In this document: positions 13,051 through 61,958 of the stretch, one piece after another | Numbering within the stretch: position 1 is the first letter of the stretch | How the letters are laid out: each line of letters begins with the position of its first letter | From: Eledone cirrhosa | Lineage: Eukaryota | Direction of reading: 5' to 3' | DNA length: 64,000 nt | Assembly: GCA_964016885.1 (NCBI GenBank) | Contig: OZ024742.1 | Span: 208,134,001-208,198,000, forward strand | Notes under the pieces: generated by a model | What the model saw: the letters and a program-made list of their open reading frames with translations, nothing else | What the model was told of the DNA's origin: nothing | Database searches by the model: none | Translations under genes and position numbers: made by a program

Positions 13051-13091
13051 ATTAATATCTTTGGGACACCATTAATATCTTTGGGACATTA

Positions 13092-13870: not shown

Positions 13871-14005
13871 CTGTATGTCTGTATGTATGAGATCGTACGT
13901 TTATATATCAATATATATATGTATATATATATATATATATATATACACATACGCTCGTATACATACAGACATACATACACACAGAACAACATATATACAC
14001 ATACG

Positions 14006-21802: not shown

Positions 21803-21882
<80 letters not shown>

Positions 21883-21914
21883 AGATCAAAAGATGGTTAA
21901 AGGAGTTCCATATA

Positions 21915-21981
21915 TTTTATTATGCGCATTTCAAAAACAAACATCATCAAGCAATAATATTTGTGTTTTCATCAGATAAAA
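21915..21981 (-). ncRNA. Minimal type I hammerhead in PLE-2 3' pLTR
   Basis: TTTTAT-CTGATGA-[stem II with 12 consecutive pairs, GCTT loop]-GAAA-TGCGCA-TA-ATAAAA; palindromic stem III, AUA site. Confidence 0.85.
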
Positions 21982-22929
21982 CAGGAGAACATGATATGAA
22001 GGCTAAAAAAACACTTGTTGATAGTGCAGTTTTAAATCAACATATGAAAAGTGGTTTTAGATTGATGTGTGATATTGGGAAAAATATTTTATTTAGAGAG
22101 GGGGGGGGGAAAGGATGAAAAGGGAAGGAGATGAGAGGGAGAGATGGGTGATAGAGAGAAAGAGATAGTTTTTATAACTGAGAGGAGATATATTTTTTAC
22201 ATAGAGGGGTTGAAAACCGTTGGAAGATACTGTATAAATTAAAAATTTTGAAAATTAACGAAGGGAGGATATGTGCGAGGAAAAAATATTTTATTTAGGG
22301 AGGGGGGGTGGAAAGGATGAAAAAAAAGGGGGGGGGGAGGAGATGAGAGTGAAGGTGGAGAGGGAGAGATGGGTGATAGACAGAAAGAGATAGTTTTTAT
22401 AACTGAGAAAAAGATATATTGTTTTAATATAGAGAGAGGTTGGGAACCGTTGGAAGATAATGTATAAATTAAAGGAATTTGAAAATTAACGAAGGGAAAT
22501 TATGTATGAAGATAGAGAGAAAAAAATAATAATTGTGGGTGAATATTCTAACGTCAAAAGAAGAAATGTATGTATTGTGGCAATTTCAAAATTAGCGAAG
22601 AGAAAAGTTGTTAAGGTTTGTGTGTAGAAGGATTTGAGAAAAATAATGTGAAGTTAAAGTTTGTATATTGAATTGATATGTATTAATAATGAGTTCGTTG
22701 ATGGGGAGAAAAAAATAATAATAAATTAAGGATGAAATTGAGATTAAAAAGATTTATGATAGAGAGAAAAAATAATAATGATTGCGGATGAATATTCAAA
22801 ATGTCAAAAACAATGTTATTATTATAGAGTGTATAATGCCCTTTAAAGTAAGGTAGATGGGTATATTTTAAAGAGGTGTATGTATATGTGCCTTTGAGAA
22901 AAGATTCTAAATAGATAAAGAATTGAATA

Positions 22930-25334
22930 TTAACTGTATACTTTGTGAAAAGTTCTATGGAATTTATGCAGGCAGATAGAAAACAAATCTGAGCGTCTAT
23001 TTATTATAGAATCTAGGTTAGAGATAATGGTAAATTTTTCATTTAGGCAGAGATTACAGATTTTAGATAGAGAGCTGTTCAAGTATGAGGATGCAGAAGA
23101 AATCTTCTTCCAAAAGATGGTATATTTAATGTTTTTGTCTTTTAAGGACCATATGAGTTCTGAGAGAGCAGTGTTGGTTCTTTTAAGTTTGTATTTGAAA
23201 GATGAATGATGATTATAGAGACGAGCTTTAAAAGAGGTGGAAGTGGAGCCAAAATAGGTCAAGGAATTGGTGCTAGTTATAATTTTACATTCATAAATTA
23301 AGTTTTTATCGAGGCAATGGTTGTTGAGAGGACATTTATTTTTAATGCGGCAGTTGCAATTAGAGAGATTATTAATGAGTGATCTAGTGTTATCTATAGA
23401 AGGAATTGGATTGGAGAAGTTGTTTGCGATAGGAATAATAGGAATAATAGTTTCTTGATTTAGAGTTGGATTATGAACATTTAGCGAAGTTGTGTTTGAC
23501 GTTGTATTTGGGTTTACAGGAGTTAGCCTAGGGTTTACAATGACGTCGGGAGTACTATTACTGTTATTATGAAATTCAATATTGGAAGGAAGAGATTTAG
23601 TGTTTAATATTTTGTTGTTGTGTTTAGAGATGATGTTGGAAATATTGGAGGATGTAGAATACGAAAATTTGATGGTGTGTTTGTTAAATATTTTACTATA
23701 GATATGTGAGGGAGGGAAGCATTTATTTAAGGCAGTAAAAAATAATTTAGGAATATTGTTATTAATAGAGATGGAGAAAGGAGCATTATACCAGATTATG
23801 TTTTTGTATCTAGGTCTTTTATTAAAATTATTGGAATGGTCATGATTAATTATTCTACTGTAAGTTTTCCTAGAATTTGTTTCTTTATTATATTTGATTT
23901 TATCTGGATAGCCGGCTTTAGAAAGTGCGTTATTATAGTAATTGGCGTTAGCATCAAAGATGTTTTTATTAGAAGATATGTTAGATATTCTATTTCCAAT
24001 ATTATTAACTATAGCATTCTTGATATTGGTAGGATGGTTAGATTTAAAGTTAACATAATTAAGATTCTCATTGTTTTTATGGTAAGGGTAATATAGGCCA
24101 GTGACAAGATTAAGAGATACATCCAAGAAATTAGCTAGTTTGATACTATTATCAAATTCAATTTTTAGGTTATGTTGGTTAAAGAGATTACGTATATTGT
24201 TCTTAATAATATTAAGTTTAACTATATTGCAATTTAGGATAGTAAAGAGTCCATCGTCACGATAAATTCCAACGCGAAGTTGAGGAATTTTCCGACTCAA
24301 AGAGTTCAAAATGAAGATACCAATTAAATCAGTCAATTGGGATGAATCGGATGCTCCCATTGTGATGTCGAAGTTGTTAGAGGTATCGGCTCTGGTCCAA
24401 TATTCGTTGTTGAACTCTAGGATGGTTTTACGTGCGGTGAGGATGATGTGAAGTTCATCTGTGGTGATGTCAGAATATTTAAGTGCGAAAGATAGAGCAT
24501 TATTGAGAAGTGAAGGCGAAATGGAGGAATAGTAGCTGGCGATATCGAATTGAATAAATTTTAGTTTGTTTTTATTATCCAATTTGTTGAACCAGCCAAT
24601 CACTTCAGAAGTACCAAACCATAAATTTAGGTTTAAAGAAGAGCAATTAGAACTAACCTGTGGGATAATCCTATCCAAGATGGCTTTACTAACAACCCCC
24701 AGATCAGATTTAGAGGGGGCGATTAATCTAACAGGTAGTTCAGTGCGAAAATTGTTTTTGTGATCCTTGAGATTTATCCTCGGAGTTCTTGGGAGGAATG
24801 GTTCGGTCTTTTTTTCAATGCCAAGTTTTGACATAATCTCATAGGCTTCAAGGTTTATGCATTCTAAATTTTCATGGTTGGTTTTACGATACTTTTTCCT
24901 AAGTTCCTTTAGGATAAGGTTGTTATAATTATCCTTGGAAATACCATATAGGTTATTGGTTTTGTCAGAGTGGACTAAAACATTTTTTGAGGAATTTAGG
25001 TTAGAGATTGTGTTCTTGAGATTTACAAGGTGCTCTTGTCCTTTGTAAGGGTATCTCTTGAATTTAAGATTTTTTTTATTATTTTAGTTAATTCTTCCTC
25101 GAATTGTGCTAGATTTTTGTTGGAAGGAGGATTTCGTCTAGAATTAAAAAGATGATCAAGGAAGTTGTGTTCTTTGGTATGAAAGTTCCCTTTTAGGCGC
25201 TGGTCATAGAAATAGGCTGTCCATCTAAGTCTTCTTACGAAGGATTCAGTTTTTTCAATAAGAAGTTTGGTGAATTCGGATTTACCAGGTATAGGAATGT
25301 CTTTAGTTGAATTGGTTATGTTGTAATAATCCAT
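22930..25334 (-). CDS. PLE RT + GIY-YIG endonuclease (~800 aa with one frameshift in an A-homopolymer at ~25071-25078)
   Basis: MDYYNITNSTKDIPIP..RRLRWTAYF joins ..HSDKTNNLY..FDIASYY..FDITMG..GIYRDDGL..CNCRIKNKCPL..YFGSTSTSFKARLYNH..CNLCLNEK..CLHK. Confidence 0.88.
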
Positions 25335-25540
25335 GTTGTAGAAGAAGAGGTGAAGGACCATCAAAAGGTATCCAATATGAGAGTAAGCGCTCAACCGTTA
25401 AGGAGCAAGTTAATGTAGGAGGTGAGTTTTATTGTAGTACAATAAAGCAATGAGGATATCGGATAAGAAGCACTCTACAGTTTGTGGGACTGGAGTATGC
25501 ATAATATAAGATCAAAAGATGGTTAAAGGAGTTCCATATA

Positions 25541-25607
25541 TTTTATTATGCGCATTTCAAAAACAAACATCATCAAGCAATAATATTTGTGTTTTCATCA
25601 GATAAAA
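25541..25607 (-). ncRNA. Minimal type I hammerhead in PLE-2 5' pLTR
   Basis: Identical to 21915-21981. Confidence 0.85.
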
Positions 25608-26728
25608 CAGGAGAACATGATATGAAGGCTAAAAAAACACTTGTTGATAGTGCAGTTTTAAATCAACATATGAAAAGTGGTTTTAGATTGATGTGTGATA
25701 TTGGGAAAAATATTTTATTTAGAGAGGGGGGGGGGAGGATGAAAAGGGAAGGAGATGAGAGGGAGAGATGGGTGATAGAGAGAAAGAGATAGTTTTTATA
25801 ACTGAGAGGAGATATATTTTTTACATAGAGGGGTTGAAAACCGTTGGAAGATACTGTATAAATTAAAAATTTTGAAAATTAACGAAGGGAGGATATGTGC
25901 GAGGAAAAAATATTTTATTTAGGGAGGGGGGGGTGGAAAGGATGAAAAAAAAGGGGGGGGGGAGATGAGAGTGAAGGTGGAGAGGGAGAGATGGGTGATA
26001 GAGAGAAAGAGATAGTTTTTATAACTGAGAAAAAGATATATTGTTTTAATATAGAGAGGTTGGGAACCGTTGGAAGATAATGTATAAATTAAAGGAATTT
26101 GAAAATTAACGAAGGGAAATTATGTATGAAATTATTTTTCACGAGAATGCATATATACTTATGTTTGAAGTTTTGTCTCAGATTTTGCTTATAGACCTAA
26201 GAATTTTTAAACTGAGCATGTAGTCATTTTTTACACATTATAGATATGTGTCTCATTCATGAATACTGGTATTTACATTATAGTGCCTAATTCATAAAAA
26301 TTTATAATTCAAATGGATGAGACATAATATATTTTTAATATATTTTAAATATATCATCTTTCTTTCTTTTTCTCATATACACTAATCTAACTGTATCCCT
26401 TCCCTTAACCTCTCACATATACGATGATCATCTGTCAAAATGCAGCCTACTATGTTTTTTTTTTTTCACCATCAATGTATTTCTCGCTATCCTTGTCTCT
26501 CTATCTCGCTCCGTTGTTTTTCTTTACATACATATCTTTTCTCTTTGCATACATCTCTTCATCTTCTTCTTTTTTATTTACATACATCTCTTCACCTTCT
26601 TCTTCTCATCTTCGTTTTCTTTCTATATAACTATCATAACAGTTTCACTACCAAATCAACTTTTTTAAAAGGAAGTTGCATTCTCAAAAGGTATGTCACT
26701 AATTATTTATAAAACAGCTTATGTATTG

Positions 26729-26858: not shown

Positions 26859-29304
<2,446 letters not shown>

Positions 29305-33754: not shown

Positions 33755-33864
<110 letters not shown>

Positions 33865-34175
33865 CAGTTTAGCCCGGCGTTGCTCGGGTTTGATCATTTG
33901 CTATGAAAAGTTACATACAGGTAAACGTAGCTTGAAAGCGCAGAATCTTTTCAATTAAGTGCACAAACCAGTTGGACCGGTTATTAAAAGTTACGAACCA
34001 ATTAGCATTTTGGAAATCAATGATGGGTTAATAATCTTCCAATAGCGAATTTAGTAGACCAAAGTTGCAAGATGGTGGCCCTGATGCCGCTGGGTGTCAG
34101 ATCTGTCCGCTATGGGTGACCCTACCAGTTTTCCAGATGGCATAGCTCCAACACTTCCAACACCTGCACCAACAT

Positions 34176-35978: not shown

Positions 35979-36713
35979 TGGTTTTGGGGTAAATCAAATA
36001 GGCGCCAAAAAGCTTCATTACTACTGATGTACCGCTCCGCCAGGTATTCTGTGACCTCGTCCCTGCTATTTTCAGCTTGAAATGCGAACATTGCGGCATC
36101 AGAGCACTTATTTACATATTTGTATATGTATTTTATCAACTTGATGGAGATGCAAAACTCAACGTTGATGTGGGCGTTGAACATCCTCAAGAGAAGCGGG
36201 CAGTATGGGACCACTCATCTATTGTCGACTTGACATCCCCTTACTGTTGTGGTGAAGCCACCGTTATCGGGCCGTCTCCGCTTGTAAAGGGGGTACCCGT
36301 CGCCACCATCTGAGTCGGGTCAACATATTCTTTTTGGTATCCCTTACTGCACGAACCCCCTTTCAGACACGTGTGATGCTCATTAGGACCCGACGCACAC
36401 GGACCATGTTAGCTTTGACGATGTCATGTAATTCCCGGTCAGTTGCTGGGTTAGGGATTTCAGCCGAAATGAAGCTGTCTATGACATTTGAATTGATTTT
36501 GTCAGCTAACCAAATCAAAATGTGAGCATGTGACAGCTCTCGTTTTTGCCATTCGACGGTGAACATGTCACATTTTACAGCCCCAAATACCCGACCTTTT
36601 TTTATTAAAGCCATGAATTTAGCCAGTTTCAGACTGAACACTCTGGCAATGAGGTCATGTCTGTTCGAATAATTTTGCCCAGCAAAAAGTTCACGGATTA
36701 CATTCCGATTCAT
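35933..36713 (-). pseudogene. Helitron Rep (HUH endonuclease) fragment
   Basis: VEWQKRELSHAHILIW (HUH motif), ISAEIP, HINVEFC and KYIYKYVNK (Y2 motif). Confidence 0.9.
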
Positions 36714-37938
36714 ATGTCTATAGCATTAATCTGTTATATGAAGTGTTATATTGCGGGTTGTTATTTGCAATAAGCCGATTGAAAATGCCCCAAATAAGCC
36801 GTGTTGCAGTGTTGTCATATAAGGAGTGAAGAGCGATATAGAGAGTAAAGCAGTTAAATTATAGAGAGGGGGAATATACGGAACGCTCCATTTGATCAAA
36901 TACATTGTTTCTCTCTCTGCAGTGGCGTCATATAGGGAGTGAAGAGCGACAGAGAGTAAAGCAGTTAAATTATAGAGAGAGGGAATGATCATGATCGATT
37001 TTTGCCCTTATTGTTGATTGATTTGAAATGTTTTTGCTTCAATACCTTCTCCTGACCAAAACCAATAATTGTCCCGACTTTGAATAGAATCCCGTAAAAA
37101 AATGTTCTCATTAATTTTTGTCTCATATTGAGAAAAACAAAGAAAGAAAATTACAAGGACAACAATAAAATATAATGTCTTTGTTGAGAATCATATAAAC
37201 AAATGCTTAAGCGTCGTTATTGTTACGTTTGTTGTTTTATAAATTCATCTGTTGCTTTTGAATATTTGTTATTTGATGTAAAATGTAAGTATGGAAAATG
37301 TAACGTTGAGAGAGCAGTATGTATTTAGTGTTATCGGCTTTTAAAATTTTGATATTTGATGTATGAGTGTCGCTTAGTTATCAAAGTTTTTTTCGCGTCC
37401 CCGAACGAAGAGGGGGAATGATCTATTATACAGAAAGTGAAGAGCGACGGAGAGAGTGAAGCTAGTGTTAAACCTCGAAGCATGAAGAGAGTAAAGCAGT
37501 TAAATTATAGAGGGGGGAATAATCTATTGTAGAGAGAGGGAAATGCGACGGAGAGAGTAAAGCTATGGTTGTTGCATAAATCGATGTGTTGCTTAGCTTT
37601 GAAAGTTTGTCTCGCGTTTCTTCAAAAGAAGTTTTGTCGTTGTTCTAATTTGTAACCTTTTAAAGAGAGTTGCAACATGTATGTAGTTTCATATATTTTT
37701 GATGGTAGTAGTGAGAGGAATGAAGCGAGTAAGAGAGAGGGTTACAGCATGTATTTAGTTTTATCGATTTATAATTACGCGTTGACCTGCCCTGGTAAAT
37801 TTGGAGCACATTGGGAATAAATCATCAAAATCGGTAGAGAAATGTGGAAATGCATAAGAATGATACACACACACAGACAGACATCTACCATTTTATATAG
37901 AGTGAGATAGTAATAACAATAATAATAATAATAATAAC

Positions 37939-38345: not shown

Positions 38346-41300
38346 TAGGAAAAAGTATGACCTCGACGGCAGAGCTCAAGCCGTTTCGACGGCTATTTCT
38401 GGACTAAATTAGAATTTTTATCCTGGTGAATAAATAGCCGAACTTTTCAACGGGGTATTTCCTTATATGGGAAGATTTTAGTTGTCAAGAGGATCAGTTA
38501 AAATTTGTTGTAAACACAAATACGTCTATCATGCCATTTGGTGTGAGGTAGTGGTGGCTGAACTTGCCTGTAGAACAATAGAGGAGTGAGTGGAGCGGTC
38601 AAGCGTTGAAAGTGATATGTATACAGCAGATTCTAAGGCTAGTGTATGAAGTGGAGGAGGGAGGTTATAGAATAGGTAAATCGAATGAGAGTAGGAGACA
38701 ATAAAAGATAACAGAAAGAAATAAATAAAAAAAATATATGAAATTAGATAGTGAGAAACGAATAAAAGAAATCACAATGTTAGGTGTGGTGCTGTAGGAG
38801 AGTTTAATGGTGTTTATCCGCTAATGAGAAGATATTCGACGAACACGCGCCTCATTACAACCAGGCCCTCAAGCGGACTGTCTTCCGGGAGGAAATATCC
38901 TTTTATCCAGCTTCCCTTAGCGGATCCAGCAGGCGACTACGCCGCTCACGCAACGTAACGTGGTTCAATCCTCCCCATAATGCCGAGGTGGAAATACCTG
39001 TCGGGAAAATCTTCTTTAGACTCCTCGAAAAACACTTCCCACTACAACACCGCTATCACAACATAATCAACAAAAACACCATTGTAGTGACCTACATTCC
39101 GCGGGCTCACATACATTCTCTGTGCGTGATTTGGCTCAGCTCAGCCAATCAGCGCCAGTAGAAGAGGATGTATCCCTACGCGTTCTGAGGGAGAAATAGC
39201 CCGCAAAGATTTGAGGACGCTATCACTTCCAGTTAAACCGTGCTAAGGTAAACACCACTTGTTCTTTTGCTCCGCCAGCACAAATATTATGTAACGACAC
39301 AACAATTTTACTACGGAATTGGCTAAACGCCTCAGGCAGTCGACCGTATTTTCTCTTGTAATCTTAATTGATTTGTTTTATTTCTCTTGGCATGCCAGCT
39401 CAACCTCTGTTAATAAATAATGTAAAACCAAGTTAAAGTCGTTGTCGATATTCCTATCCTGTCTTTCTACCAAACCTGGTTCCTCGTGGCGACATTACAA
39501 CTCTCTAAATACTTCTCCGCAAAATTGTCGACCCTCGACGATTAAGTATGAAAACGCAGCTTATTTGAATTGGCCATTCGTTTTAATGGCTATGTGGAGT
39601 GGCTTAACATTTGGAGTGTTCGACTCGGGTAGCTAGACGCACTTAGCGTAAGTCCATAACATTCATAATATTCCATTTGTTGAAGCACGCGGCCTGCACA
39701 ATATTTCTGTCATAACTTTCATGGTAACACTAGTAACTCACGCATACAGACGAACACAAAAATACAAGACAAACAAAAATTAATTTAAAAAAAAAGGATT
39801 TCTCTGGATATAGAATTTTGCTTTCAACATTCTGTTAAAATTACAAATGGAGACTCAAAAATTTTGTTTTCCCGCGTACATTTTGTCTTCTTCGATCCCA
39901 GCCGTCTGATTGGCTGCGTCGTGCCACATGACGGCTTCTTCATCAGAGGCGCATTTTTCAATCGGCCATCTTGCCGAATAATTTTCATGGAGAATAATTT
40001 TTTTTGTTGTTCGAATTTTCTTTCGAATATTTTTATTAAAAAAATTACCAGTATTTCAAAAACTTTTCGCCACGAGGAAATTTCAAAACGGCTACCACCA
40101 AGTACCAGCCATCAGCAGCAACACATGGCTAACTATTAACCAACACCAGGGAACGGCTTGTAACTTTACCGACGCAACCACCATACCTTCTGTCTCGTTA
40201 CCACAAGGACTCGAGAAATTAAGACATTAGTTTTCTCACCATTATGGCGTCAGACGTGGCGGCCATATTGGTGACTCTGCGTTCTTCAACGCTCGACTTC
40301 TACTCTACAGAAGATTCATTGTGACTTTGCTTTAACAACAACTCTACTAGCTCCCTAGTAAGAGTGTTCCCAAACAAAAATGAAGCAAACTTTTTGTTAA
40401 AAGAAAAGAAACAATTCTTTCTTTCTTCCTTTTTTTTCAAGCATTTATTTTGGACATTTATTTTTTTTAAAACTGTATTATATGAAAATTCATTTCTCTC
40501 TATCATTGTATATATGACCGCAGGCACACATTTTCTTTGCGGTATTACATGCCTGCATATATACACACACCAACATGTTGTTATCTATGGTATGTGATCT
40601 TCAAGCGTCGTAATATTCTGCGAGATCCCTTTTCACCTTCTGGAGGTACCAAAACATGCTATCGACACTTGCAGCTTAGTTCACCTGCACCGCAACACGA
40701 GAATGCTAATTGCAGCTTAACTCAAACAGTTTCACATCTCGTTGCACATTCATCGTCCATAACAACCTGTATCTTGTTATCTTCCCCAACTCACCGGGAA
40801 AACAACAAATAGAACTGGACTTGTCAGCATTTTCACCACTTCTGTGGATTCGCCCGAATTATGGAACTGCAACCCACCTACAGATTCAACTTGCTTTTTT
40901 TTTCTTATCAAAGCAACCAGCCATTTTTTCCTGGCTCCCTAGCACATTCGGCAATACATCTGGGAGGCCAACATTTTCTCGCCTACCCATCATCTTCTTG
41001 CCAGCACTGGTAAACTACTATAATAGCTTCGTCCACAGCTACTGGTACAACACTTACCATTAACATTTAATGCAAGAACAGCAACTTCGCCCATGTCAGA
41101 CTTTATCTGTTTTCTGGTAGACCTTTGGTGGTCACGTATAAACTACAAAACAGCTAGTCATTTGACAGCGGCTCAAAACGGCCCGTCACGATTCATTTAT
41201 TTTTCTTTCATGCATGTTTCTGCTCAATTATTTTTTCACTGATGTGCTCTTTCAGCATTTGTTCTTGCTGATTCAATAATCTGTGGGTCCTCGGCTTCAT

Positions 41301-43196
41301 CGTTAACGATTTTCGGCTAAAAATCTTCTCGGAGGTGATGTAGTGACCTACATTCCGCGGGCTCACATACATTCTCTGTGCGTGATTTGGCTCAGCTCAG
41401 CCAATCAGCGCCAGTAGAAGAGGATGTATCCCTACGCGTTCTGAGGGAGAAATAGCCCGCAAAGATTTGAGGACGCTATCACTTCCAGTTAGACCGTGCT
41501 AAGGTAACCACCACTTGTTCTTTTGCTCCGCAAGCACAAACAATATGTAACGACACAACAATTTTACTACGGAATTGGCTAAACGCCTCAGGCAGTCGAC
41601 CGTATTTTCTCTTGTAATCTTAATTGATTTGTTTTATTTCTCTTGGCATGCCAGCTCAACCTCTGTTAATAAATAATGTAAAACCAAGCTAAAGTCGTTG
41701 TCGATATTCCTATCCTATCTTTCTGACAATGATGGTTCCTCGTGGCAACATTACAACTTCTAAAATATACCTCTCCGCTAAATTGGTGACAATATACCTA
41801 ACACCAAACCATCAAACTCTCCTACACCACCACACCTAACTTCGCACAAAACATCGTCTCCTCAGACAACAACAAAACTCAACCCCTATGGAAGAAATAA
41901 CCTAGACATCAGTGGAGAGCCGACCAGGAGGTGTAACTGCCCTGATAGAACTACGTGCTCCTCAACAACAAATGGCAAGAACGTAACGTGATCTACCAGT
42001 GCAACGTGAGGACGGACACCTCCAACAAAGCTTATATAGGATTAACCGCGTGTGACTTCAAGACCCGGCTCTACCAACACCGACATACTTTCCGAAACCC
42101 GGTCCGACGACATGCCACTACACTTTCAGGCCACATCTGGGACCTCAAAGATAATAAGACAACCTAGAATCTCACTTGGAGTTTACTGTCCAAAGCTAAC
42201 TCTTACACGGGAGGACGCTGTCCGTTTAACTTATGCTCGGAGGAAACATTACAAATGCTGTTTTCGAAGGACCAACTCCTAAACAAGAAAGGGTAACTGG
42301 TAACCGCATGCAAACACAGATTGCGTAGGAGTAACCTCGCCCTCAAACCCCATAACGACCCGGGTGGGTAGACAAGGGCTGATACCCCCTACTAGCCGAA
42401 TAAGTTAGGGGAATCCCCAGCTTACTTAGGTAGATGTATCTCTTTTCTTTTCTTTTCTTCTTTGTCTTCTTCCCCCTGTTTCTTTCCACCCCCTATTTTC
42501 TTCCTCGTCTGCTTTTCCTCTTTGCCTACCCCGATGCAGCCCATCGGGCCTCTGTAGCATCAGTTCCCCCACCCCTGTAATTGTAACTACTTATAACAGA
42601 CGTGTTAAACCCCTTTAATTCTGTATCACTTCTGGTACTACTCATTTTTTTCTATTCTCAACTTATTAACCTGTAATTGTAAGATATCATTGTTATTTTT
42701 TATTCATTTCTCACTATCTAATTTCATATATCTTTTTATTTTTATTTAATTCTATTATCTTTTATTGTCTCCTACTCATATTCGATTTACCTATTCTATA
42801 AACTCCCTCCTCCATTTCATACACTAGCCTTAGAATCTGCTTTATACATATCACTTTCAACGCTTGACCGCTCCACTCACTCCCCTATTGCTCTACAGGC
42901 AAATTCAGCCACCCCTACCTCCAACCAAATGCCATGATAGACTTATTTGTGTTTACAACAAATTTTAACCAATCCTCTTGACAACTACAATATTCCCATA
43001 TAAGAAGTACCCCCTTGAAAAGTTCGGCTATTTATTCACCAGGATAACAATTTTAATTTAGTCCAGAAATATCCGTCGAAACGGCTTGAGCTCTGCCGTC
43101 GGGGTCATACATTTTCCTATTTCCCACTCTACTACCCTAAGTATTGAGTACTCTGGTGAGTTATGATCCATCTGGTTCCTTACCACAATTCCTTTG

Positions 43197-43200
<4 letters not shown>
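38346..43200 (+). mobile_element. 5'-truncated Penelope-like element PLE-3 with inverted upstream pLTR, interrupted by an LTR element
   Basis: 38346-38775 is the reverse complement of about 42690-43120. ORF remnant RSRNVTWFNPP..NKNTI|KLSYTT..CNC..AYIGLT. (TA)n on both flanks. Confidence 0.88.
39083..41807 (+). mobile_element. Non-coding (non-autonomous) LTR element with 5-bp TSD
   Basis: Direct repeats start TGTAGTGA at 39083 and 41339 (at least 417 bp, to CATTACA at 39499/41755). ACCAT is duplicated at 39078-39082 and 41808-41812, and removing the element restores the PLE ORF. No long internal ORF. Confidence 0.85.
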
Positions 43201-47289: not shown

Positions 47290-47294
<5 letters not shown>

Positions 47295-47480
47295 AAAATG
47301 TGTAACCCCGACGGCAGAGCTCAAGCCGTTTCGACTGAAATATAGTCCAGAAATAGCCGTCGAAATGGCTTGAGCTCTGCCGTCGGGGTCTTGAACATTT
47401 TCCTATTATCCGCTCTACTACCCGAGTATTGAGTACACTGGTGCGTCATGGTCCATCTGGTTCCTTACCATATTTCCTTC
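47290..47480. mobile_element. Mini inverted insertion of PLE-3 pLTR end in (TA)n
   Basis: 47290-47335 is the reverse complement of about 47358-47406, followed by the tail also seen at 43120-43185. Confidence 0.85.
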
Positions 47481-47504
47481 GTTATATATATATATATATA
47501 TATA

Positions 47505-48745
47505 TATTTGGTATATACGTTCGTATGTGTGCGGGTACTGGTGTCACGCGGATTTATGTATGTGTACGTGCATGTATATGCATGCATAGCGGGTGTTTTG
47601 CGTATGCCTGTGTATGTACATATTTGATACGTTATATGTATATATTTAATTATTTGATTTTAATAACCTCTGGCATTTTCGTTCTACTAATTTATTTACA
47701 TTAATCTTAACTCTGAAGTCAAGAACCATTCGGTTTCCTGTATAGGATACTAGCAGTAAAGCCCGGCGTTGCTCGGGGTCGCTCAGTAGCTGTGTTAAAG
47801 TTACAATGTTAAGTTTCTTTTTTGGCTTAAAAACTGTAGTGTCTACTGTGCAGACTTGCATGTGGTGTTTTTGATTAATATTCCCTCAACCAACAATATG
47901 CCTTATGAAGTTAAGAAAACATAACGATAACCCGAATGTTATAACAAAAGAGGATGCTGGGGATAAAAACTACACTGGTTATTTATTAACAAAGATCGAA
48001 AATGTAAACACTGCAACGCAGAGAAAAACAACGTAAGACGCTCAATGTAAACAGAACAAAGGGAAATAACTCGTCACTTACGCTCAAAAATCGATACATT
48101 AGATTCGATTTCGTCACATAGGGTGGGTCAATTTGAAATATTTTTTTCCGATGTCTTCGCTAGGGCTCAATGTACAAGTATAGCAATTTCGGTGCAATTC
48201 CGTCAGAGATTCTAAGAGGAGATGTGTTCCAAAAATCGATAGACAGACAGACAACCACAGCTTTATATATATAGAACAAATGGAAATAACTCGTCACTTA
48301 CGCTCAAAAATCGATACATTAGATTCGATTTCGTCACATAGGGTGGGTCAATTTGAAATATTTTTTTCCGATATCTTCGCTAGGGCTCAATGTACAAGTA
48401 TAGCAATTTCGGTGCAATTCCGTCAGAGATTCTAAGAGGAGATGTGTGCCAAAAATCGATAGACAGACAGACAACCACAGCTTTATATATATAGATTAGT
48501 CTACGACTTCATTTATACCATAGACGTGGTTTTGTCTTTGCATGTAATTGTTCTTGCGTTCTACATAACGACGTTTTATCTTCGCTTTTTTCCGTTCATT
48601 GCTATGGAACGTCTTCACGAACCAAAGATCTTCCTGTTTTCCTTCAGTTGCAACGTTTTTCGAAATATTTACTTCTGCGTTCACAGATTGTTTTTTTTAG
48701 TTGCAGAAGATCCCGTTTGCTAAAACTTTAATCTGTTATTTTAAT
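47505..48745 (+). mobile_element. Solo PLE-1-family pLTR split by a Helitron
   Basis: 47505-47749 and 48496-48745 align contiguously to about 20570-21097. Confidence 0.8.
47750..48495 (-). mobile_element. Non-autonomous Helitron with ~220-bp tandem duplication of its 5' end
   Basis: On the minus strand: A|TCTATATATATAAAGC...CCCGAGCAACGCCGGGC..CTAG|T. About 48053-48273 is repeated at 48273-48495. Confidence 0.88.
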
Positions 48746-48751
48746 ATATAT

Positions 48752-50693
48752 ATCTATATATATAAATATGAGGATGTGTATGTTAAGGTTTGTAACGGAT
48801 TCACGTCAGCAATTTCCAACGGATTCTATTCAAAGTCAGGACAGTTATTGATGTTGGTCAGGGAAAGGTCATGTAGCAAAAACATTTCAAATCCATCAAC
48901 AATAAGGGCAAAAATCGATCATGATCATTCTCCCTCTCTATAATTTAACTGCTTTACTCTCTCTGTCGCTCTTCACTCCCTATATGACAACACTGCAGAG
49001 AGAGAAGCTATGTGTATGATCAAATGGAGCGTTCCGTATATTCCCTCTCTCTATAATTTAACTGCTTTACTCTCTGTATCGCTCTTAACTCGCTATATGA
49101 CAACACTGCAGTGGAGCGTTCCGTATTGACATACAGCTTATCTGGAGCATTTTCAATCGGCATATTGCAAATAACAACGCGCAAAATAATACTTCATATA
49201 ACAGATTAATGCTAAACACATACGAATCGGAATGTAACCCTGTGATCTATTCCTGGGCAAAATTATTTGAACAGACATGACCTCATTGCCAGAGTGTTCA
49301 GACTGAAACTGGCTAAACACATGGCTTTTATCAAAAAGGGTCAGGTATTTGGGGCTGTAAACGTGACATGTTTACCGTCGAATGGCAAAAACGAGGGCTG
49401 CCACATGCTCATCTTTTGATTTGGTTAGCTGATAAAATCAATTCAAATGCCAGAGACAGCTTCATTTCGGCTGAAATCCCTAACCCAGCAACTGACCAGG
49501 AATTACATGACACCGTCGTAACTAACCTAGTCCGTGTGCGTCGGAACCTAATGAGCATCACACGTGTCTGAAAGGGGGTCGTGCAGTAAAGGATACCCTC
49601 AAAAATGTGTTGACCAGACTCAGACTGGTGGCGACGGATACCCTCTGTACAGACGGAGACGGCCCGAGAACGGTGGCTTCACCACAACAGTAAAAGGAAG
49701 TCAAGTCAACAATAGATGAGTGGTCCCTTACTGCCCGCTTCTCCTGAAGATGTTCAACGCCCACATCAACGTTGAGTTTTGCAACTCCGTCAAGTCGATA
49801 AAATACATATGCAAATATGTAAATAAGGGGTCTGATGCCGCAATGTTCGCATTTCAAGCTGAAAATAGCAGGAACGAGGTCACAGAATACCTGGTGGGGC
49901 GGTACATCAGTAGTAATGTAACTTTTTGGCGCCTATTTGGTTTACCCCTACACCAACGGCACTCCGCCATCGTACAGCGTTCTGTACATTTGGAAAGGGT
50001 TTACTTTACGGACCAAACCACCGCCAGGTTCGCGGCTGATCCGAAAGAGACCACTCTGACGGGTTTCCTCATACTTTGTCAGTTCGATACATTTGCGCAT
50101 ACAATTGTGTACCCCAAGGTTCAATACTACTTTATATGGTCGAAAAGCACTTGCGTGCGAAAAACGTCAGGTCAGGCCATTGAATGACATCCTCGTGAAA
50201 AATTTGACAGCTGTCTTGGAAGGATTTACACTGTGCCCCCATGTCAGCATGAGTGCTTTCATCTCCGCCTTCTTCTGCATGAAGTTGTAGGCCGACAAAG
50301 TTTTCAGGACCTCAAAACTGGTGATGGAGTAATATGTCATACGTACCGGGAAGCCTGCTTTAAGCGTGGTCGTTTGGAAGATGATTCGCAATGGGATTCC
50401 ACTTTAGCAGAGGGTGCTTTGTTGAAAGTAGAGTCACCCATGGCGGAAGGATCTGACACCCACCGGCATCCGGGCCACCATCTTGCAAATTTGGTCTACT
50501 AAATTCGCTATTGAAAGATTATTAAACCATCATAGATTGTCCAAAATGCTCATTGTTTCGTAACCTTTAATAACCGGCTCAAATGTTATATGCACTTAAT
50601 TGATAAGCTTATTCGCTTTCAAGCTACGTTTACTTGTATGTAACCTTTCAAAGCAAATGAACAAACACGAGGACAGCCGAGCTAAACTGCTAG
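48752..50693 (+). mobile_element. Helitron copy 2 (Rep remnant, helicase deleted)
   Basis: 5' TCTATATATATAAA, VEWQKRGLPHAHLLIW, KYICKYVNKG and a 3' end ..gctaaactgCTAG|T. Homologous to 33861-37100. Confidence 0.88.
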
Positions 50694-50790: not shown

Positions 50791-50800
<10 letters not shown>

Positions 50801-50966
50801 ATAACAAAAGATGGTTAAAAGAGTTCCATGTATTTTATTATGCGCATTTCAAAAACAAACATCATCATGCAATTATTAAATATTATGTATACTCCAGTCC
50901 TACAAATTGTAGAGTGCTTCTTATCCGATATCTGCATTGCTTTATTGTACTACAATAAAACTCACC

Positions 50967-50968
<2 letters not shown>
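50791..50968. mobile_element. Mini inverted insertion of PLE-2 family termini in (TA)n
   Basis: 50791-50875 matches 25501-25580, and 50881-50966 is the reverse complement of about 25421-25505. Confidence 0.8.
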
Positions 50969-51022
<54 letters not shown>

Positions 51023-51404: not shown

Positions 51405-53150
51405 TATTGTATTTGATTGATTCTTATTAATCATAGAATGTCTGTGCACGTACCACCGTTTTTTGAAAACACCGGTTGTGGAACCAATGCAATACTATGC
51501 CAAGCTACCTTTTTACTACGTTTTTCTCAAGGCATCTGTTTAGTAGAGGGCAATTGTCGGGTAAGTGGCAATTGCATAGAAATGCTTTCCTATGCGCCGG
51601 TTCTACTATATGATTTTGAAGAGTGTTATGTATGGGCTGCGAATTAGGTTTGTTGGTGTATTGTGGTGGTGTTCTTTGGCGTGTATTTTGTTGCGAAGAT
51701 GTAATATGTGTGTGTTCTATATTTGGTGACATGGAACTTATATGGGGGCACCTTTGATTATGAATTCTTATATAGTTAATTTTGGAAATATGCGATTCTA
51801 AGGTTCCACAGCCGGTGTTTTGAAAAAACGGTGGTGCACAGACATTCTATGATTAATAAGAATCAATCAAATACAACAGCTCTTGCCAATAAAATATGAC
51901 AACTCAAGAATGCAGGTATTAAACACGAGATCAGCTAGAAAATACTGTCAACTGCTAAGGCCTATCAAACTGGTATGTCCCATTGTAGGCTCTGTAATAT
52001 GGAGCTCTTCCAAATTCTTAATTTTAGTAAAACCCTTCTTAACAGCAGAATTGAGGGAACTATCTTTTGCCGGCATAAATCAGCAACGAGGTTCCTGAGA
52101 TTTAGACCTACTTAACTCCATTTTCAACTCCTTATTACTTTTTTATACTTTTAGAACGTATTACGATATCAAATTATCACAAACTTTATAATTACGTAAG
52201 ACTAACCTAATAACATTTGTATTAACATCATTATTTTTATTTTTATAAGGGCGGTGGATTGGCAGTATCGATGGAGGGTCGGACGCCATGCTTTCCAGCA
52301 TAGTTACGTGCCTTTACGATCTGAGTTCAAATCCCGCCGAGGTTGACTTTGCCTTTCATCCTTACAGGGTCGATAAAATAAAGTACCAGTAATGCACTGG
52401 GGAATTTGCTGGCCTTGTGCCTAAAGTAGAAACAATTATTTTTATTTTTATTTATATTTACATCATTTATTACCTTATATATATATACACCTTTCACCAT
52501 TTGTCTTTGTATTTCTCCACTTAAACATATTTCATCTCGATCATTTTATCCTATAATATAATACATGTCAAACTAGCTATTTTACATAGTAATGTATATT
52601 CGTCCGTATGTTTATTTTATTTTCTCTCTTCTTCATATCCCCCATATTCATGATTAATTTCTATACCCTCTGCTTCCTCACTCATCCCTCTTAATCTTCC
52701 TCTATTTCTTTCTCATCTTCCTTACTTATCCTTCCTCTTTCCCTATGCTATATCCCCCCTTCTCTCTTTCTATATATATCTTTATTATTATTAATATTAT
52801 ATTTATTTTGATGTGATAGTTTGATTTCGTAACTTTGCCGGTTATACATTTAACTATATCTTCGTTCCTTCTTTCGTCATTTTCTTTCTTTCACTCTCAT
52901 TTCCGTATGTCCCTCTTCCTTTATTTATTTATCATTAATACTCTTATTGATGTAGTAATTTGAATTTTTAAGTTTATCGTTACGCATATATTTTATATTT
53001 CTTAATAGTTTCTAATGAAATGATTGAACTTGAGTTATACTGTCTCCAGTATTTAGCAATTTATAGACAATTCTATCATCGAAACAGTTGTAAGACTGTA
53101 AATAAATATCCTTGTTTGTGCTGTCAACCATGTTATTCTTCACTTATATA
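51405..53150. mobile_element. Truncated PLE (Hydra-like) with 5' inversion
   Basis: Minus arm 51405-51800 (LCNCHLPDNCPLLNRCL). Plus arm from 51800 (AKAYQTGMSHCRLCNME..LLNSR..CRHK). Inverted overlap at 51407-51485 and 51802-51877. Degenerate HHR (CTAATGA..CGAAACAGT..ACTGTA) at about 53005-53108. Confidence 0.75.
52248..52440 (+). mobile_element. tRNA-derived SINE
   Basis: Same family as 13092. Confidence 0.85.
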
Positions 53151-54014
53151 TATATATATATATTCATCTTATATGTGGAGAGTAAATGAGTACAAAAGAA
53201 ATGTAGGAATGTTTCAGAAATAGAGCGAAAAAAATTAGAGAGTGAGAAAAATGGAAATAGTAAGGTACGCCGTTATTATCAGAATGGAAGGTAGATAATG
53301 CTACTAAGAGCTCTTTTAAATCCAATCTTCATATCATAACATGTTTTGCTCAAATCGTCAGAATATTGGAATCTTTAATTTAGCCCTTAAACAACAAGCT
53401 ACTATACTACGAAGGGGGTCATTCTACATGACATATATGCCAAATATGTAAATGGGATACGTCAGAAAAAATGATTTGTATTAGAAAGGACATTTTCAAA
53501 TCAGACATATAGGACCCTATAAATCATTGATTTAGTATTAATTCCATTCCGTATGATGGTAGCTGGAAGAATTCATTTGTATCTGAGTGCAATGGAGTTA
53601 AACTAATTCGAGTCGGAAATAACCGACCGTAGCTGACTGAAAATGCACATGGCAAAAATACATGTTATGCCATTGAACTTTAAGGGACTTCAGAAAACTA
53701 ATTGATAATGGTCTGATGGATAATTTTGATTAATTTTCTCACTTTTTGTCTTAGTTATATCTCACGGATGTCTGAAACCTGCAACATATTTGCCTGACTC
53801 ATCTCATTTCGTTATTTTTGATAAACAGTCGGTCAAATGTAATGGAATAAACAAAATGTCCAAGGCATGTTCCCCTTATCTTGTTCCCTTCACTTATCTT
53901 TGTATGTGTGATGATAGGTTGTGATATAAGGGAGAGTTGTTTGCTATTTCTCTCAGGCTGAATGACTACGCAAAGGCTCCTTCATTAGCTTCTTCGCTGA
54001 TATTATTTATCTAA

Positions 54015-54198
54015 TTGGCAGTATCGGTAGAGGGTCGGACGCCATGCTTTGACGCATAGAGTTACGGCCCTTGTCATTCTGAGTTCAACTCCCGCCGAGG
54101 TTAACTTTACCTTTCATCCTTACGGGGTCGATAAAATAAAGTACCAGTAATACACTGGGAAAATGCTGGCCTTGTGCCAAAAGTAGAAACAATTATTT
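54015..54198 (+). mobile_element. tRNA-derived SINE
   Basis: Same family; attatttatctaa recurs on both sides (TSD-like). Confidence 0.85.
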
Positions 54199-56617: not shown

Positions 56618-56620
<3 letters not shown>

Positions 56621-59600
56621 AACGGAAAAAATGAAACGATATTTCATTTCCCACTCTTAGTACGGCTGTTACTTAAATATAAGTATGTACACGTACATAC
56701 ATATATGTATACCGACGTACAGTAGTATGTATATATATATATACATACATGCACACATATATATATGCACGTATGGATTCACCGAACATTTATTATAATG
56801 CTCGGTGTGTTTGTAAACAAACATCCCGTATTAAGCCGTAGTGTCTAGCAACCACCGTTGCTCGTTTGTTCAACACTGACAAAGGAACGCTGTACTAGTT
56901 TCAAGCTTGTTAGCTATCGTCAGCAACGTATACCTTCCTGCCAGATTGTTGAACGTATATACTTACCTTATGCATATTGACGGCCGAGTAGCCCAATATG
57001 CATATCGAGTGGGTTAATCGGCCGGGTGCACCGAAAACGATAAACGGAAAAAATGAAACGATATTTCATTTCCCACTCTTAGTACGGCTGTTACTTAAAT
57101 ATAAGTATGTACACGTACATACATATATGTATACCGACGTACAGTAGTATGTATATATATATATACATACATGCACACATATATACATGCACGTATGGAT
57201 TCACCGAACATTTATTATAATGCTCGGTGTGTTTGTAAACAAACATCCCGTATTAAGCCGTAGTGTCTAGCAACCACCGTTGCTCGTTTGTTCAACACTG
57301 ACAAAGGAACGCTGTACTAGTTTCAAGCTTGTTAGCTATCGTCAGCAACGTATACCTTCCTGCCAGATTGTTGAACGTATATACTTACCTTATGCATATT
57401 GACGGCCGAGTAGCCCAATATGCATATCGAGTGGGTTAATCGGCCGGGTGCACCGAAAACGATAAACGGAAAAAATGAAACGATATTTCATTTCCCACTC
57501 TTAGTACGGCTGTTACTTAAATATAAGTATGTACACGTACATACATATATGTATACCGACGTACAGTAGTATGTATATATATATATACATACATGCACAC
57601 ATATATATATGCACGTATGGATTCACCGAACATTTATTATAATGCTCGGTGTGTTTGTAAACAAACATCCCGTATTAAGCCGTAGTGTCTAGCAACCACC
57701 GTTGCTCGTTTGTTCAACACTGACAAAGGAACGCTGTACTAGTTTCAAGCTTGTTAGCTATCGTCAGCAACGTATACCTTCCTGCCAGATTGTTGAACGT
57801 ATATACTTACCTTATGCATATTGACGGCCGAGTAGCCCAATATGCATATCGAGTGGGTTAATCGGCCGGGTGCACCGAAAACGATAAACGGAAAAAATGA
57901 AACGATATTTCATTTCCCACTCTTAGTACGGCTGTTACTTAAATATAAGTATGTACACGTACATACATATATGTATACCGACGTACAGTAGTATGTATAT
58001 ATATATATACATACATGCACACATATATATATGCACGTATGGATTCACCGAACATTTATTATAATGCTCGGTGTGTTTGTAAACAAACATCCCGTATTAA
58101 GCCGTAGTGTCTAGCAACCACCGTTGCTCGTTTGTTCAACACTGACAAAGGAACGCTGTACTAGTTTCAAGCTTGTTAGCTATCGTCAGCAACGTATACC
58201 TTCCTGCCAGACTGTTGAACGTATATACTTACCTTATGCATATTGACGGCCGAGTAGCCCAATATGCATATCGAGTGGGTTAATCGGCCGGGTGCACCGA
58301 AAACGATAAACGGAAAAAATGAAACGATATTTCATTTCCCACTCTTAGTACGGCTGTTACTTAAATATAAGTATGTACACGTACATACATATATGTATAC
58401 CGACGTACAGTAGTATGTATATATATATATACATACATGCACACATATATATATGCACGTATGGATTCACCGAACATTTATTATAATGCTCGGTGTGTTT
58501 GTAAACAAACATCCCGTATTAAGCCGTAGTGTCTAGCAACCACCGTTGCTCGTTTGTTCAACACTGACAAAGGAACGCTGTACTAGTTTCAAGCTTGTTA
58601 GCTATCGTCAGCAACGTATACCTTCCTGCCAGATTGTTGAACGTATATACTTACCTTATGCATATTGACGGCCGAGTAGCCCAATATGCATATCGAGTGG
58701 GTTAATCGGCCGGGTGCACCGAAAACGATAAACGGAAAAAATGAAACGATATTTCATTTCCCACTCTTAGTACGGCTGTTACTTAAATATAAGTATGTAC
58801 ACGTACATACATATATGTATACCGACGTACAGTAGTATGTATATATATATATACATACATGCACACATATATATATGCACGTATGGATTCACCGAACATT
58901 TATTATAATGCTCGGTGTGTTTGTAAACAAACATCCCGTATTAAGCCGTAGTGTCTAGCAACCACCGTTGCTCGTTTGTTCAACACTGACAAAGGAACGC
59001 TGTACTAGTTTCAAGCTTGTTAGCTATCGTCAGCAACGTATACCTTCCTGCCAGATTGTTGAACGTATATACTTACCTTATGCATATTGACGGCCGAGTA
59101 GCCCAATATGCATATCGAGTGGGTTAATCGGCCGGGTGCACCGAAAACGATAAACGGAAAAAATGAAACGATATTTCGGCCGTCAATATGCATAAGGTAA
59201 GTATATACGTTCAACAATCTGGCAGGAAGGTATACGTTGCTGACGATAGCTAACAAGCTTGAAACTAGTACAGCGTTCCTTTGTCAGTGTTGAACAAACG
59301 AGCAACGGTGGTTGCTAGACACTACGGCTTAATACGGGATGTTTGTTTACAAACACACCGAGCATTATAATAAATGTTCGGTGAATCCATACGTGCATAT
59401 ATATATGTGTGCATGTATGTATATATATACATACTACTGTACGTCGGTATACATATATGTATGTACGTGTACATACTTATATTTAAGTAACAGCCGTACT
59501 AAGAGTGGGAAATGAAATATCGTTTCATTTTTTCCGTTTATCGTTTTCGGTGCACCCGGCCGATTAACCCACTCGATATGCATATTGGGCTACTCGGCCG

Positions 59601-61170
59601 TCAATATGCATAAGGTAAGTATATACGTTCAACAATCTGGCAGGAAGGTATACGTTGCTGACGATAGCTAACAAGCTTGAAACTAGTACAGCGTTCCTTT
59701 GTCAGTGTTGAACAAACGAGCAACGGTGGTTGCTAGACACTACGGCTTAATACGGGATGTTTGTTTACAAACACACCGAGCATTATAATAAATGTTCGGT
59801 GAATCCATACGTGCATATATATATGTGTGCATGTATGTATATATATATATACATACTACTGTACGTCAGTATACATATATGTATGTACGTGTACATACTT
59901 ATATTTAAGTAACAGCCGTACTAAGAGTGGGAAATGAAATATCGTTTCATTTTTTCCGTTTATCGTTTTCGGTGCACCCGGCCGATTAACCCACTCGATA
60001 TGCATATTGGGCTACTCGGCCGTCAATATGCATAAGGTAAGTATATACGTTCAACAATCTGGCAGGAAGGTATACGTTGCTGACGATAGCTAACAAGCTT
60101 GAAACTAGTACAGCGTTCCTTTGTCAGTGTTGAACAAACGAGCAACGGTGGTTGCTAGACACTACGGCTTAATACGGGATGTTTGTTTACAAACACACCG
60201 AGCATTATAATAAATGTTCGGTGAATCCATACGTGCATATATATATGTGTGCATGTATGTATATATATATATACATACTACTGTACGTCGGTATACATAT
60301 ATGTATGTACGTGTACATACTTATATTTAAGTAACAGCCGTACTAAGAGTGGGAAATGAAATATCGTTTCATTTTTTCCGTTTATCGTTTTCGGTGCACC
60401 CGGCCGATTAACCCACTCGATATGCATATTGGGCTACTCGGCCGTCAATATGCATAAGGTAAGTATATACGTTCAACAATCTGGCAGGAAGGTATACGTT
60501 GCTGACGATAGCTAACAAGCTTGAAACTAGTACAGCGTTCCTTTGTCAGTGTTGAACAAACGAGCAACGGTGGTTGCTAGACACTACGGCTTAATACGGG
60601 ATGTTTGTTTACAAACACACCGAGCATTATAATAAATGTTCGGTGAATCCATACGTGCATATATATATGTGTGCATGTATGTATATATATATATACATAC
60701 TACTGTACGTCGGTATACATATATGTATGTACGTGTACATACTTATATTTAAGTAACAGCCGTACTAAGAGTGGGAAATGAAATATCGTTTCATTTTTTC
60801 CGTTTATCGTTTTCGGTGCACCCGGCCGATTAACCCACTCGATATGCATATTGGGCTACTCGGCCGTCAATATGCATAAGGTAAGTATATACGTTCAACA
60901 ATCTGGCAGGAAGGTATACGTTGCTGACGATAGCTAACAAGCTTGAAACTAGTACAGCGTTCCTTTGTCAGTGTTGAACAAACGAGCAACGGTGGTTGCT
61001 AGACACTACGGCTTAATACGGGATGTTTGTTTACAAACACACCGAGCATTATAATAAATGTTCGGTGAATCCATACGTGCATATATATATGTGTGCATGT
61101 ATGTATATATATATATACATACTACTGTACGTCGGTATACATATATGTATGTACGTGTACATACTTATAT
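56618..61170. mobile_element. Hammerhead-bearing tandem array 2 (422-bp monomer), two divergent arms (retrozyme-like)
   Basis: Left arm 56618-59177 has 6 units, with HHRs on - starting at 56887, 57309, 57731, 58153, 58575 and 58997. Right arm 59176-61170 has ~4.7 units, with HHRs on + at 59234, 59652, 60074, 60496 and 60918. Units are nearly identical and the flanks are (TA)n. Confidence 0.92.
59234..59276 (+). ncRNA. Minimal type I hammerhead of array 2 (representative of 11 copies)
   Basis: ACGTTG-CTGACGA-tAGCTaacaAGCTt-GAAA-CTAG-TA-CAGCGT; stem I extends via CTGGCA/TGTCAG and GTTCAACA/TGTTGAAC. Confidence 0.88.
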
Positions 61171-61764: not shown

Positions 61765-61958
61765 GGGCGGTGAATCAGCAGTATCGGTAGAGGGTCGGAC
61801 GCCATGCTTTGCAGCATAGTTACGTCCCTTAACGGACTGAGTTCAAATCCCACCGAGGTTAACTTTGCCTTTTATCCTTACGGGGTCGATAAAATAAAGT
61901 ACCAGTAATACACTGGGATAATTGCTGGCCTTGTGCCAAAAAGTAGATACAATTATTA
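61765..61958 (+). mobile_element. tRNA-derived SINE
   Basis: Same family; attataattgccatt flanks both sides (TSD-like). Confidence 0.85.

Follow-up and report, generated by a model that had tools for sequence, protein, structure and literature searches.

A 64,000-nucleotide stretch of the Eledone cirrhosa genome (GCA_964016885.1, contig OZ024742.1, positions 208,134,001 to 208,198,000, forward strand; hereafter the window) raises the question of how repeats that encode no protein come to lie in (TA)n microsatellites as two opposed tandem arms with shared end points. The window holds two such arrays, both composed of head-to-head tandem arms, at 56618-61170 (422-nt unit; family F2) and 26859-29170 (468-nt unit; family F1). 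In both, the 5' ends of the arms meet in the middle and the RNA-sense 3' ends point outward into (TA)n, which adjoins the outer ends in four cases out of four; the RNA sense of each set of arrays follows from the orientation of its hammerhead motif.

Two arrays with common end points

A first-pass annotation had claimed that both arrays stop at two common monomer sites, X and, about 55-60 nt further inside, Y, separated by a hairpin and a U-run. All four ends fit these sites and the spacing proved to be 59 nt in F1 and in F2: counted from the predicted hammerhead cut, X and Y lie at 275 and 216 in F2 and at 312 and 253 in F1. The hairpin between X and Y of F2 (AAATGAAA..TTTCATTT) was located at 56629-56649, together with the U-run. 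The features concerned are the following:

56618..59177, minus strand: left arm of the F2 retrozyme array, 6.07 units of 422 nt; its RNA-sense 3' end is X (56618) and adjoins (TA)n
59176..61170, plus strand: right arm of F2, 4.73 units; its 3' end is Y (61170) and adjoins (TA)n
26859..27612, minus strand: left arm of the F1 retrozyme array, 1.61 units of 468 nt; its end is Y (unit position 253)
27610..29170, plus strand: right arm of F1, 3.34 units; its end is X (312)
56618..56676, minus strand: 59-nt 'tail' of F2, from Y (216) to X (275), present on one array end only
56624..56651, minus strand: predicted hairpin lying immediately 5' of X and its U-run (folding, z -2.5)
56670..56685, minus strand: predicted short hairpin with Y in its loop (folding)
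59235..59275, plus strand: a copy of the type I hammerhead motif, with CUGACGA, stem II, GAAA and a palindromic minimal helix III; predicted cut after 59270

The two arms of F2 overlap by 2 nt at their head-to-head junction. Folding places X of F2 a few bases past the hairpin at 56624..56651 and the U-run, and predicts hairpins similar to this one in F1 and in the related family F4 (see below); the whole F2 unit folds far more strongly than its shuffled versions (z -8.6).

The remainder of the window is rich in other repeats. Two related Helitron-like fragments lie in opposite orientation at 33862-37092, which includes a PIF1 helicase region, and at 47750-50692. A non-LTR element with a 1,141-aa open reverse transcriptase (RT) frame beside (TAA)n runs occupies 8878-12303, with a broken relative upstream at 3955-7360, and a SINE-like dispersed repeat of about 180 bp recurs with 83-91% identity at 13087-13264, 14005-14189, 52258-52439, 54014-54197 and 61778-61957.

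Identity and relatives of the repeats

Judged by their sequence features, the arrays are hammerhead-motif tandem repeats and as such non-LTR retrozymes. The 422- and 468-nt units are tandem and non-coding, as expected of this class: the F2 array has no ORF of 120 aa, and the sole long frame of the F1 array is a low-complexity one of 127 aa. A motif scan recovered one type I hammerhead motif per unit, comprising the core, stems I and II and a palindromic helix III. Among the 150 of 231 Rfam matches listed there was no hammerhead family, just microsatellite-driven miRNA matches below the gathering score. Exact copies of the 31-nt ribozyme core number 2,012 in the 3.0 Gb genome; the copies are dispersed, have no LTR and are flanked by target duplications of 10-15 nt (non-LTR retrozymes having more than 4 bp), and the dispersed loci share 99-100% identity. 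In all this they resemble known non-LTR retrozymes, which are likewise non-coding tandem repeats of a few hundred nucleotides, each unit bearing a single type I hammerhead whose helix III is short and palindromic, and which occur as dispersed multimers with duplications longer than 4 bp in genomes that also harbor PLEs (Penelope-like elements), the proposed mobilisers. Their length of 422-468 nt puts them at the upper end of the span of 150-450 bp given in the accessible text of PMC7229834.

Several relatives were encountered. F4 is a divergent 465-nt relative of F1 and F2 (loci L131-L150); its X ends fall at 298-299, and its Y ends are scattered over 223-235, tracking homology to the target. 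Additional hammerhead tandem families comprise one with a 310-nt unit and a relative of it (L091:1-3244, L083:2677-3522, L065:240-650, L129:320-800); the few ends seen adjoin (TA)n near unit positions 130-139 and 165, which hints at two end sites of their own. Isolated hammerhead-like motifs also occur in other repeats of the window, at 30742 (plus strand) and about 29429 (minus strand). Some retrozyme arrays are long, those of L039 and L080 exceeding the stretch fetched, and element clusters have formed where a retrozyme or PLE sits in (TA)n inside or beside an element of the other kind (L059, L083, L091, L129).

Distribution of the ends in the genome

Mapping of termini onto the monomer bore out the expectation of two sharp peaks. 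The positional sample comprised every locus, 35 in number, to which the first 100 core matches of the listing belong, and as these were drawn by their match to the core the sample was not selected by its ends. In the 34 loci tallied, 58 of 65 resolved 3' ends lie at X or Y (33 X, 25 Y, 7 elsewhere, with 2 more at the edge of the stretch). Several of the off-site ends fall in the internal TA tract of the unit, where other elements had inserted; this long (TA)n tract is itself seldom an end. Two arms were present at 24 of the 35 sampled loci, including two whose second arm is about 15 nt long. For these tallies the mixed-subfamily locus L050 was left out of F2, L041 and L042 were merged as one locus, ends at a locus edge or gap were left out, and so were arms shorter than 35 nt, which hides the second arms of about 15 nt in L046 and L057.

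Junctions of the two sites with (TA)n are likewise far above chance. Genome-wide we counted 3,931 exact X-(TA)n and 3,884 exact Y-(TA)n junctions, as against 14 (TA)n junctions for a control site in the F2 unit with longer TA homology; the ratio is approximate, as the search patterns were unequal in length and ambiguity.

One X and one Y end per insertion

Outward-facing neighboring junctions within 8 kb of each other, drawn from 87 X and 100 Y junction coordinates in the first 79.8 Mb of contig C1, gave 26 XY, no XX and no YY pairs; a few of these recur among the fetched loci. Among fetched loci with two canonical ends, the pairing was XY in 40/40 cases for F2, 10/10 for F1, 13/13 for F4 and 14/14 for PLE-A, a coding element described below, amounting to 77 pairs with neither XX nor YY (L034 contributes two duplicate pairs, both counted). 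A second coding element, PLE-3, gave 13/13 outward pairs of the XY type and no XX in 20 loci picked for having an X end. Independent use of the two sites would give at most half XY.

Twelve more pairs have one end at neither X nor Y; we tentatively ascribe these to subsequent deletion or to nesting of insertions. One of the twelve, L020, combines X with an X-like end whose first 15 nt are repeated (L020:3820-3850), so that it may be a true X+X exception; the repeat looks as if the primer had realigned to a short direct repeat past X, recalling by analogy the realignment of telomerase-type enzymes.

The proposal that the longer arm ends at X did not survive: the X arm is the longer one in only 41 of the 77 pairs, amounting to no length bias, and because of this we regard the coincidence of long arm and X in both arrays of the window as fortuitous. 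The rule that holds genome-wide is one X and one Y, not long versus short arm.

Target-site duplications and local growth

Pure (TA)n masks duplications, and the test for them therefore rests on flanks in which the repeat is interrupted, present in 21 of the 77 pairs. An interrupted duplication of at least 10 nt was found in 10 of these 21, compared to a mean of 1.65 and a maximum of 6 in 500 shuffles; the lengths are 10-15 nt, with one periodic case of 20. The targets of L137 and L138 are AT-rich but not repetitive, and carry duplications of 13 nt and 11-13 nt respectively. Our script called no duplication in the other 11 interrupted flanks; several of these are artefacts of end calling, and the flanks of L034, L038, L056 and L071 look truly discordant. 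A direct duplication flanking a two-armed array implies that the whole array was inserted as a single event at a staggered cut, and such a cut with duplication would, under target priming, leave a 3' overhang on each side.

Fixed variants specific to one arm were seen in L027, L031, L044 and L048, and thus some arms were locally amplified or derive from different molecules. In L027 a single variant has spread across ten adjacent units, and L041 is an old array of 38 diverged units with recurring sets of variants. From the arm-specific variants and this old array it follows that local satellite-like growth also occurs. These two loci are what might recommend the view that each array began as one pLTR-like insertion and expanded into a satellite on the spot, with ends and inversions arising through DNA slippage or recombination at TA-like patches, and amplification by unequal crossover is proposed in the accessible text of a recent preprint (10.64898/2026.07.22.740005). 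Such a process does not, however, account for the 14 junctions at a control site with longer TA homology against about 3,900 at X or Y, for the rarity of ends in the internal (TA)n tract, for dispersed loci that are 99-100% identical, or for 10-15-nt duplications flanking entire two-armed arrays. As the origin of the ends, satellite growth is thus largely refuted, and we give this account very little credence.

Penelope-like elements with the same footprint

The window contains PLE copies that are relevant here:

21875..26250, minus strand: PLE-A, a Hydra-like Penelope-like element by its motifs, with RT and C-terminal GIY-YIG; frameshifted copy with a hammerhead in each pLTR
50796..50971, no strand assigned: minimal PLE-A insertion, head to head in (TA)n, with a 72-nt Y arm and a 92-nt X arm; neither contains the other
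38346..38782, minus strand: inverted arm of PLE-3; its end is Y (equivalent to 43120)
38783..43199, plus strand: main arm of PLE-3, 5'-truncated, with a broken ORF and an insert inside; it ends at about 43199, which is X, about 80 nt past Y
47290..47483, no strand assigned: minimal PLE-3-type insertion, head to head in (TA)n, with a Y arm and an X arm

As had been noted from the sequence, these copies show the same two-end asymmetry as the arrays, PLE-3, 47290-47483 and 50796-50971 each having one Y and one X. The 3' end of PLE-A in the window is its Y site and adjoins (TA)n. The parallel claim that the ends lie far from the hammerhead cut holds for the retrozymes but not for Y of the PLEs: the ends of PLE-A fall at 43-46 (Y) and 134 (X) after its cut, and Y of PLE-3 about 20 nt after a presumed cut. 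The families resemble one another in their end motif, in which UAU or UACAU comes after a run of pyrimidines. The tails of different families could not be aligned with one another.

PLE-A retains an 821-aa open frame in 40 of 62 scored copies, at 98-99% identity; from the first Met its ORF has 809 aa and joins a telomerase-like RT to a GIY-YIG at its C terminus in one frame. A predicted model of it (pLDDT 86.7) has telomerase RTs as its top six fold matches; a GIY-YIG hit was obtained in 3 of 67 aligned members, PLE-A itself not being one of them. Pfam returned nothing in the three PLE frames, and PDB sequence searches returned nothing meaningful. The motifs fit a Hydra-like PLE: as compared to the Hydra clade in the accessible text of PMC8557442, PLE-A shares the C-terminal GIY-YIG, the DKT, CxCx5C, CxxC and CxH flanking motifs, the lack of CCHH, the hammerhead in the pLTR and the (TA)n targets, but has RWT for RWK and a unit of 3.9 kb rather than the usual less than 3 kb.

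Some further features of the PLEs are worth recording. Two PLE-A loci on different contigs, L094 and L108, share the same inversion junction (about 135 and 1264 in unit positions) with different arm lengths. The pLTR of PLE-3 (43010-43105) folds in a hammerhead-like manner around an unusual core, which reads UUGA(A/C)AA for CUGANGA and is conserved in the copies compared, and the ORF of PLE-3 is interrupted by an LTR-like insert of about 2.7 kb (39083-41785) with 445-bp direct repeats starting in TG. The third PLE of the window, at 17640-20300, is also Hydra-like but older and contains an internal duplication of 295 bp. L036:3779-4500 belongs to another PLE family; its inverted arm extends past the position at which the main arm enters the ORF, and stops in (TA)n.

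Which enzyme inserts the retrozymes? Local alignment of retrozyme units with the pLTRs of PLE-A and PLE-3 found no significant likeness, and the matches to the third PLE at z>3 were AT/GT low-complexity sequence. Neither local alignment to these three of the many PLE families nor tblastn of the fetched loci found a partner PLE. The lack of pLTR homology in the three families, along with other RT elements in the window (8878-12303), would be in keeping with mobilisation by a microsatellite-targeting retrotransposon other than a PLE. LINE-type priming starts elsewhere, namely at the RNA 3' end, whereas the two internal end sites, the one-sided tail, the duplication length and the head-to-head arms all match PLE-A and PLE-3 of the same genome, leaving such an element a most improbable agent. 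The inserting enzyme probably belongs to a Hydra-like PLE; among the elements encountered, PLE-A is the strongest candidate source.

Template, arms and inversion junctions

All 97 junctions between arms are head-to-head, none being direct tail-to-tail. Within a locus the two F2 arms are discordant in 13 of 717 diagnostic comparisons (1.8%) as against 18% for shuffled partners; the corresponding values for F1, 4/36 against 39%, are weak. Minority variants are nearly all private to one copy, those shared by both arms being 4/125, two of them ancestral, in a comparison of low power. As to the template, 102 of 123 F2 arms cross the ribozyme cut, and the 5' ends within 10 nt of it number 5 of 121, with 5.7 expected, the others being spread over the unit. 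Because the arms read through the cut and their 5' ends ignore it, a cleaved linear monomer is ruled out as the usual template. A circle and an uncleaved multimer fit these data equally well, with about an even chance for either.

At the junctions, overlaps of at least 2 nt are present in 44 of 83 (18% at random) and inserted bases in 26 of 83; short overlaps and inserted bases are the pattern of microhomology-mediated joining. Of the 77 pairs, 38 have a Y arm that lies inside the X arm, 17 show the reverse, and in the remaining 22 there is no containment either way. Internal deletions blur this count for PLE-A, and we therefore rely on the retrozymes, where containment is absent from 15 of 63 pairs, and on the minimal insertion at 50796-50971.

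These observations bear directly on a scheme of single priming and fold-back, in which target priming happens at one end, the cDNA or antisense template then primes itself at a palindrome and is copied back, and the intermediate is resolved when the endonuclease cleaves the second arm at the remaining site. It would account for the shared haplotype and the head-to-head orientation, and at several junctions both 5' ends do lie at one palindromic position (70/70 in L031, 313/313 in L058, 70/70 in L132). It also stands near published ideas, going by the accessible texts on self-priming (PMC3846280) and on endonuclease resolution (PMC8557442). A second arm copied from the first should, however, be contained in it, and Y lies inside X in only 38/77 pairs, with neither arm inside the other in 15/63 of the retrozymes; nor is there a length bias (41/77), and in vitro the RT starts at either boundary of the tail (PMC11167929). 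Arms that do not contain each other could be mimicked by later deletion at the palindrome centre, which would blur the containment test, and for this reason fold-back keeps some weight as an unlikely explanation.

A further alternative is that two separate RNAs serve, one at each cut end, with an asymmetric enzyme complex forcing X at one and Y at the other. The X+Y pairing does not by itself require a single RNA, and the arm-specific fixed variants of L027, L031, L044 and L048 could be taken in its favor. It sits poorly with the low within-locus discordance (1.8% versus 18%), and a screen of the 5' side of 33 unpaired arms against six references found no arm of another family or of a PLE, though many families coexist. 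We consider the use of two RNAs about as improbable as fold-back.

A proposed model of priming at two internal sites

The reading that we consider likely is that the RT/GIY-YIG protein of a PLE makes a staggered cut in (TA)n and that each cut end primes at an internal position of the RNA, X serving one end and Y its partner. The initial annotation had similarly proposed internal priming on a circular RNA by a PLE enzyme at two fixed sites, once per strand of a cut (TA)n. The priming itself is well backed by the footprints: the termini form two sharp peaks and pair as X+Y, the duplications measure 10-15 nt, two coding PLE families follow suit, and neither arm can have been copied from the other. 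The circle is one of two templates that fit equally, and the asymmetry of long and short arms attached to the proposal (41/77) has to be given up. Under this model the staggered cut would leave 3' overhangs of about 12-14 nt, each of which would anneal by 2-5 nt to a U/A-rich patch, that of Y in a hairpin loop and that of X past the next hairpin. A single ribonucleoprotein, which probably has two RT sites on the same RNA, would set the division between X and Y. Synthesis of both cDNAs would then continue past the ribozyme site over a random distance, with either a circle or an uncleaved multimer as template, and host end-joining would fuse the two cDNA ends, generating the inversion. Single-arm copies would probably be events that lost most of one arm, and some arrays may afterwards grow locally as satellites.

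More tentatively, and at slightly less than even probability, we propose that these PLEs, and the retrozymes as their parasites, normally integrate by fixed-site twin priming. One complex would hold one RNA, possibly a circle, with the two overhangs assigned to start sites flanking the hairpin, and both RTs would roll repeatedly through the unit. As a first counterpoint to twin priming as such, a common haplotype of the two arms would also arise from one dominant source locus per cell. The L1 elements provide a comparison: in the twin priming reportedly described by Ostertag and Kazazian (2001), both target ends are said to prime on the RNA and to be joined by microhomology to yield an inversion with duplication, with a first start at the poly(A) end, a second at an internal site that varies, and only a minority of inverted copies. 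Here, in contrast, both starts are internal and fixed, the longer arm comes from either, and 24/35 sampled loci are inverted. A second counterpoint is that the anole enzyme in vitro shows no start-site difference between the strands (PMC11167929).

Relation to previous work and implications

The closest parallels come from work on PLE tails. In vitro, the Anolis PLE Poseidon cuts and extends both strands, and two internal starts on the RNA bound the tail (Frangieh et al. 2024, PMC11167929). In the accessible text of Craig et al. (2021, PMC8557442) the tail is often at one end only, ascribed to resolution by the endonuclease, and the Hydra clade inserts into (TA)n; that of Arkhipova et al. (2013, PMC3846280) ascribes head-to-head PLE inversions to self-priming and gives duplications of 8-10 bp. 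Our elements agree with these in the two putative internal starts bounding a tail, the frequent one-sidedness of the tail, the inverted 5'-truncated copies, the AT-rich targets and the presumed cutting and extension of both strands. They differ in their tails of 59-90 nt rather than 30-40, in that the rule extends to protein-free retrozymes, in 2-5 nt of primer homology where the in vitro work reports none (PMC11167929), and in the near-absolute X+Y pairing, the accessible PLE texts having the tail as 'optional' or 'often at one end' and the inversions as products of self-priming or endonuclease resolution.

With regard to retrozymes, circular templates and PLEs as mobilisers are proposed in the accessible texts of Cervera and de la Pena (2020, PMC7229834; 2014, PMC4209133). 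The preprint of Li, Clavereau and Pollet (2026, 10.64898/2026.07.22.740005), as far as its accessible text goes, bases the link to PLEs on their co-occurrence and on homology to pLTRs, without settling the mechanism; here the link is an insertion footprint, obtained without pLTR homology in the families compared. The accessible texts of PMC7229834 and of the preprint have no terminus map, tail, inverted arms or (TA)n target. Our search of the literature, with subscription papers including early Penelope work lying outside it, returned neither a tail or X+Y pairing in retrozymes nor fixed-site twin priming in PLEs. The retrozyme and PLE families and the two-start tail of PLEs are thus already known. 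New here are the footprint of tail and duplication in retrozymes that encode no protein and the near-absolute X+Y pairing, which places a constraint on PLE integration.

The inverted ends and one-sided tail of PLEs and the mobiliser of animal retrozymes are given as open questions in the accessible parts of PMC8557442, PMC7229834 and the 2026 preprint. The thousands of young insertions in this genome yield a quantitative rule common to protein-free retrozymes and coding PLEs, and footprint evidence, beyond co-occurrence, for PLE machinery inserting retrozymes as multimers. A direct test has natural reagents in the intact PLE ORF, a 422-nt RNA with two predicted starts and a (TA)n target. If fixed-site twin priming is indeed the normal route, a single mechanism would cover the tail, the head-to-head inverted pLTRs, the tandems, and ribozyme satellites that are born as ready-made multimers.
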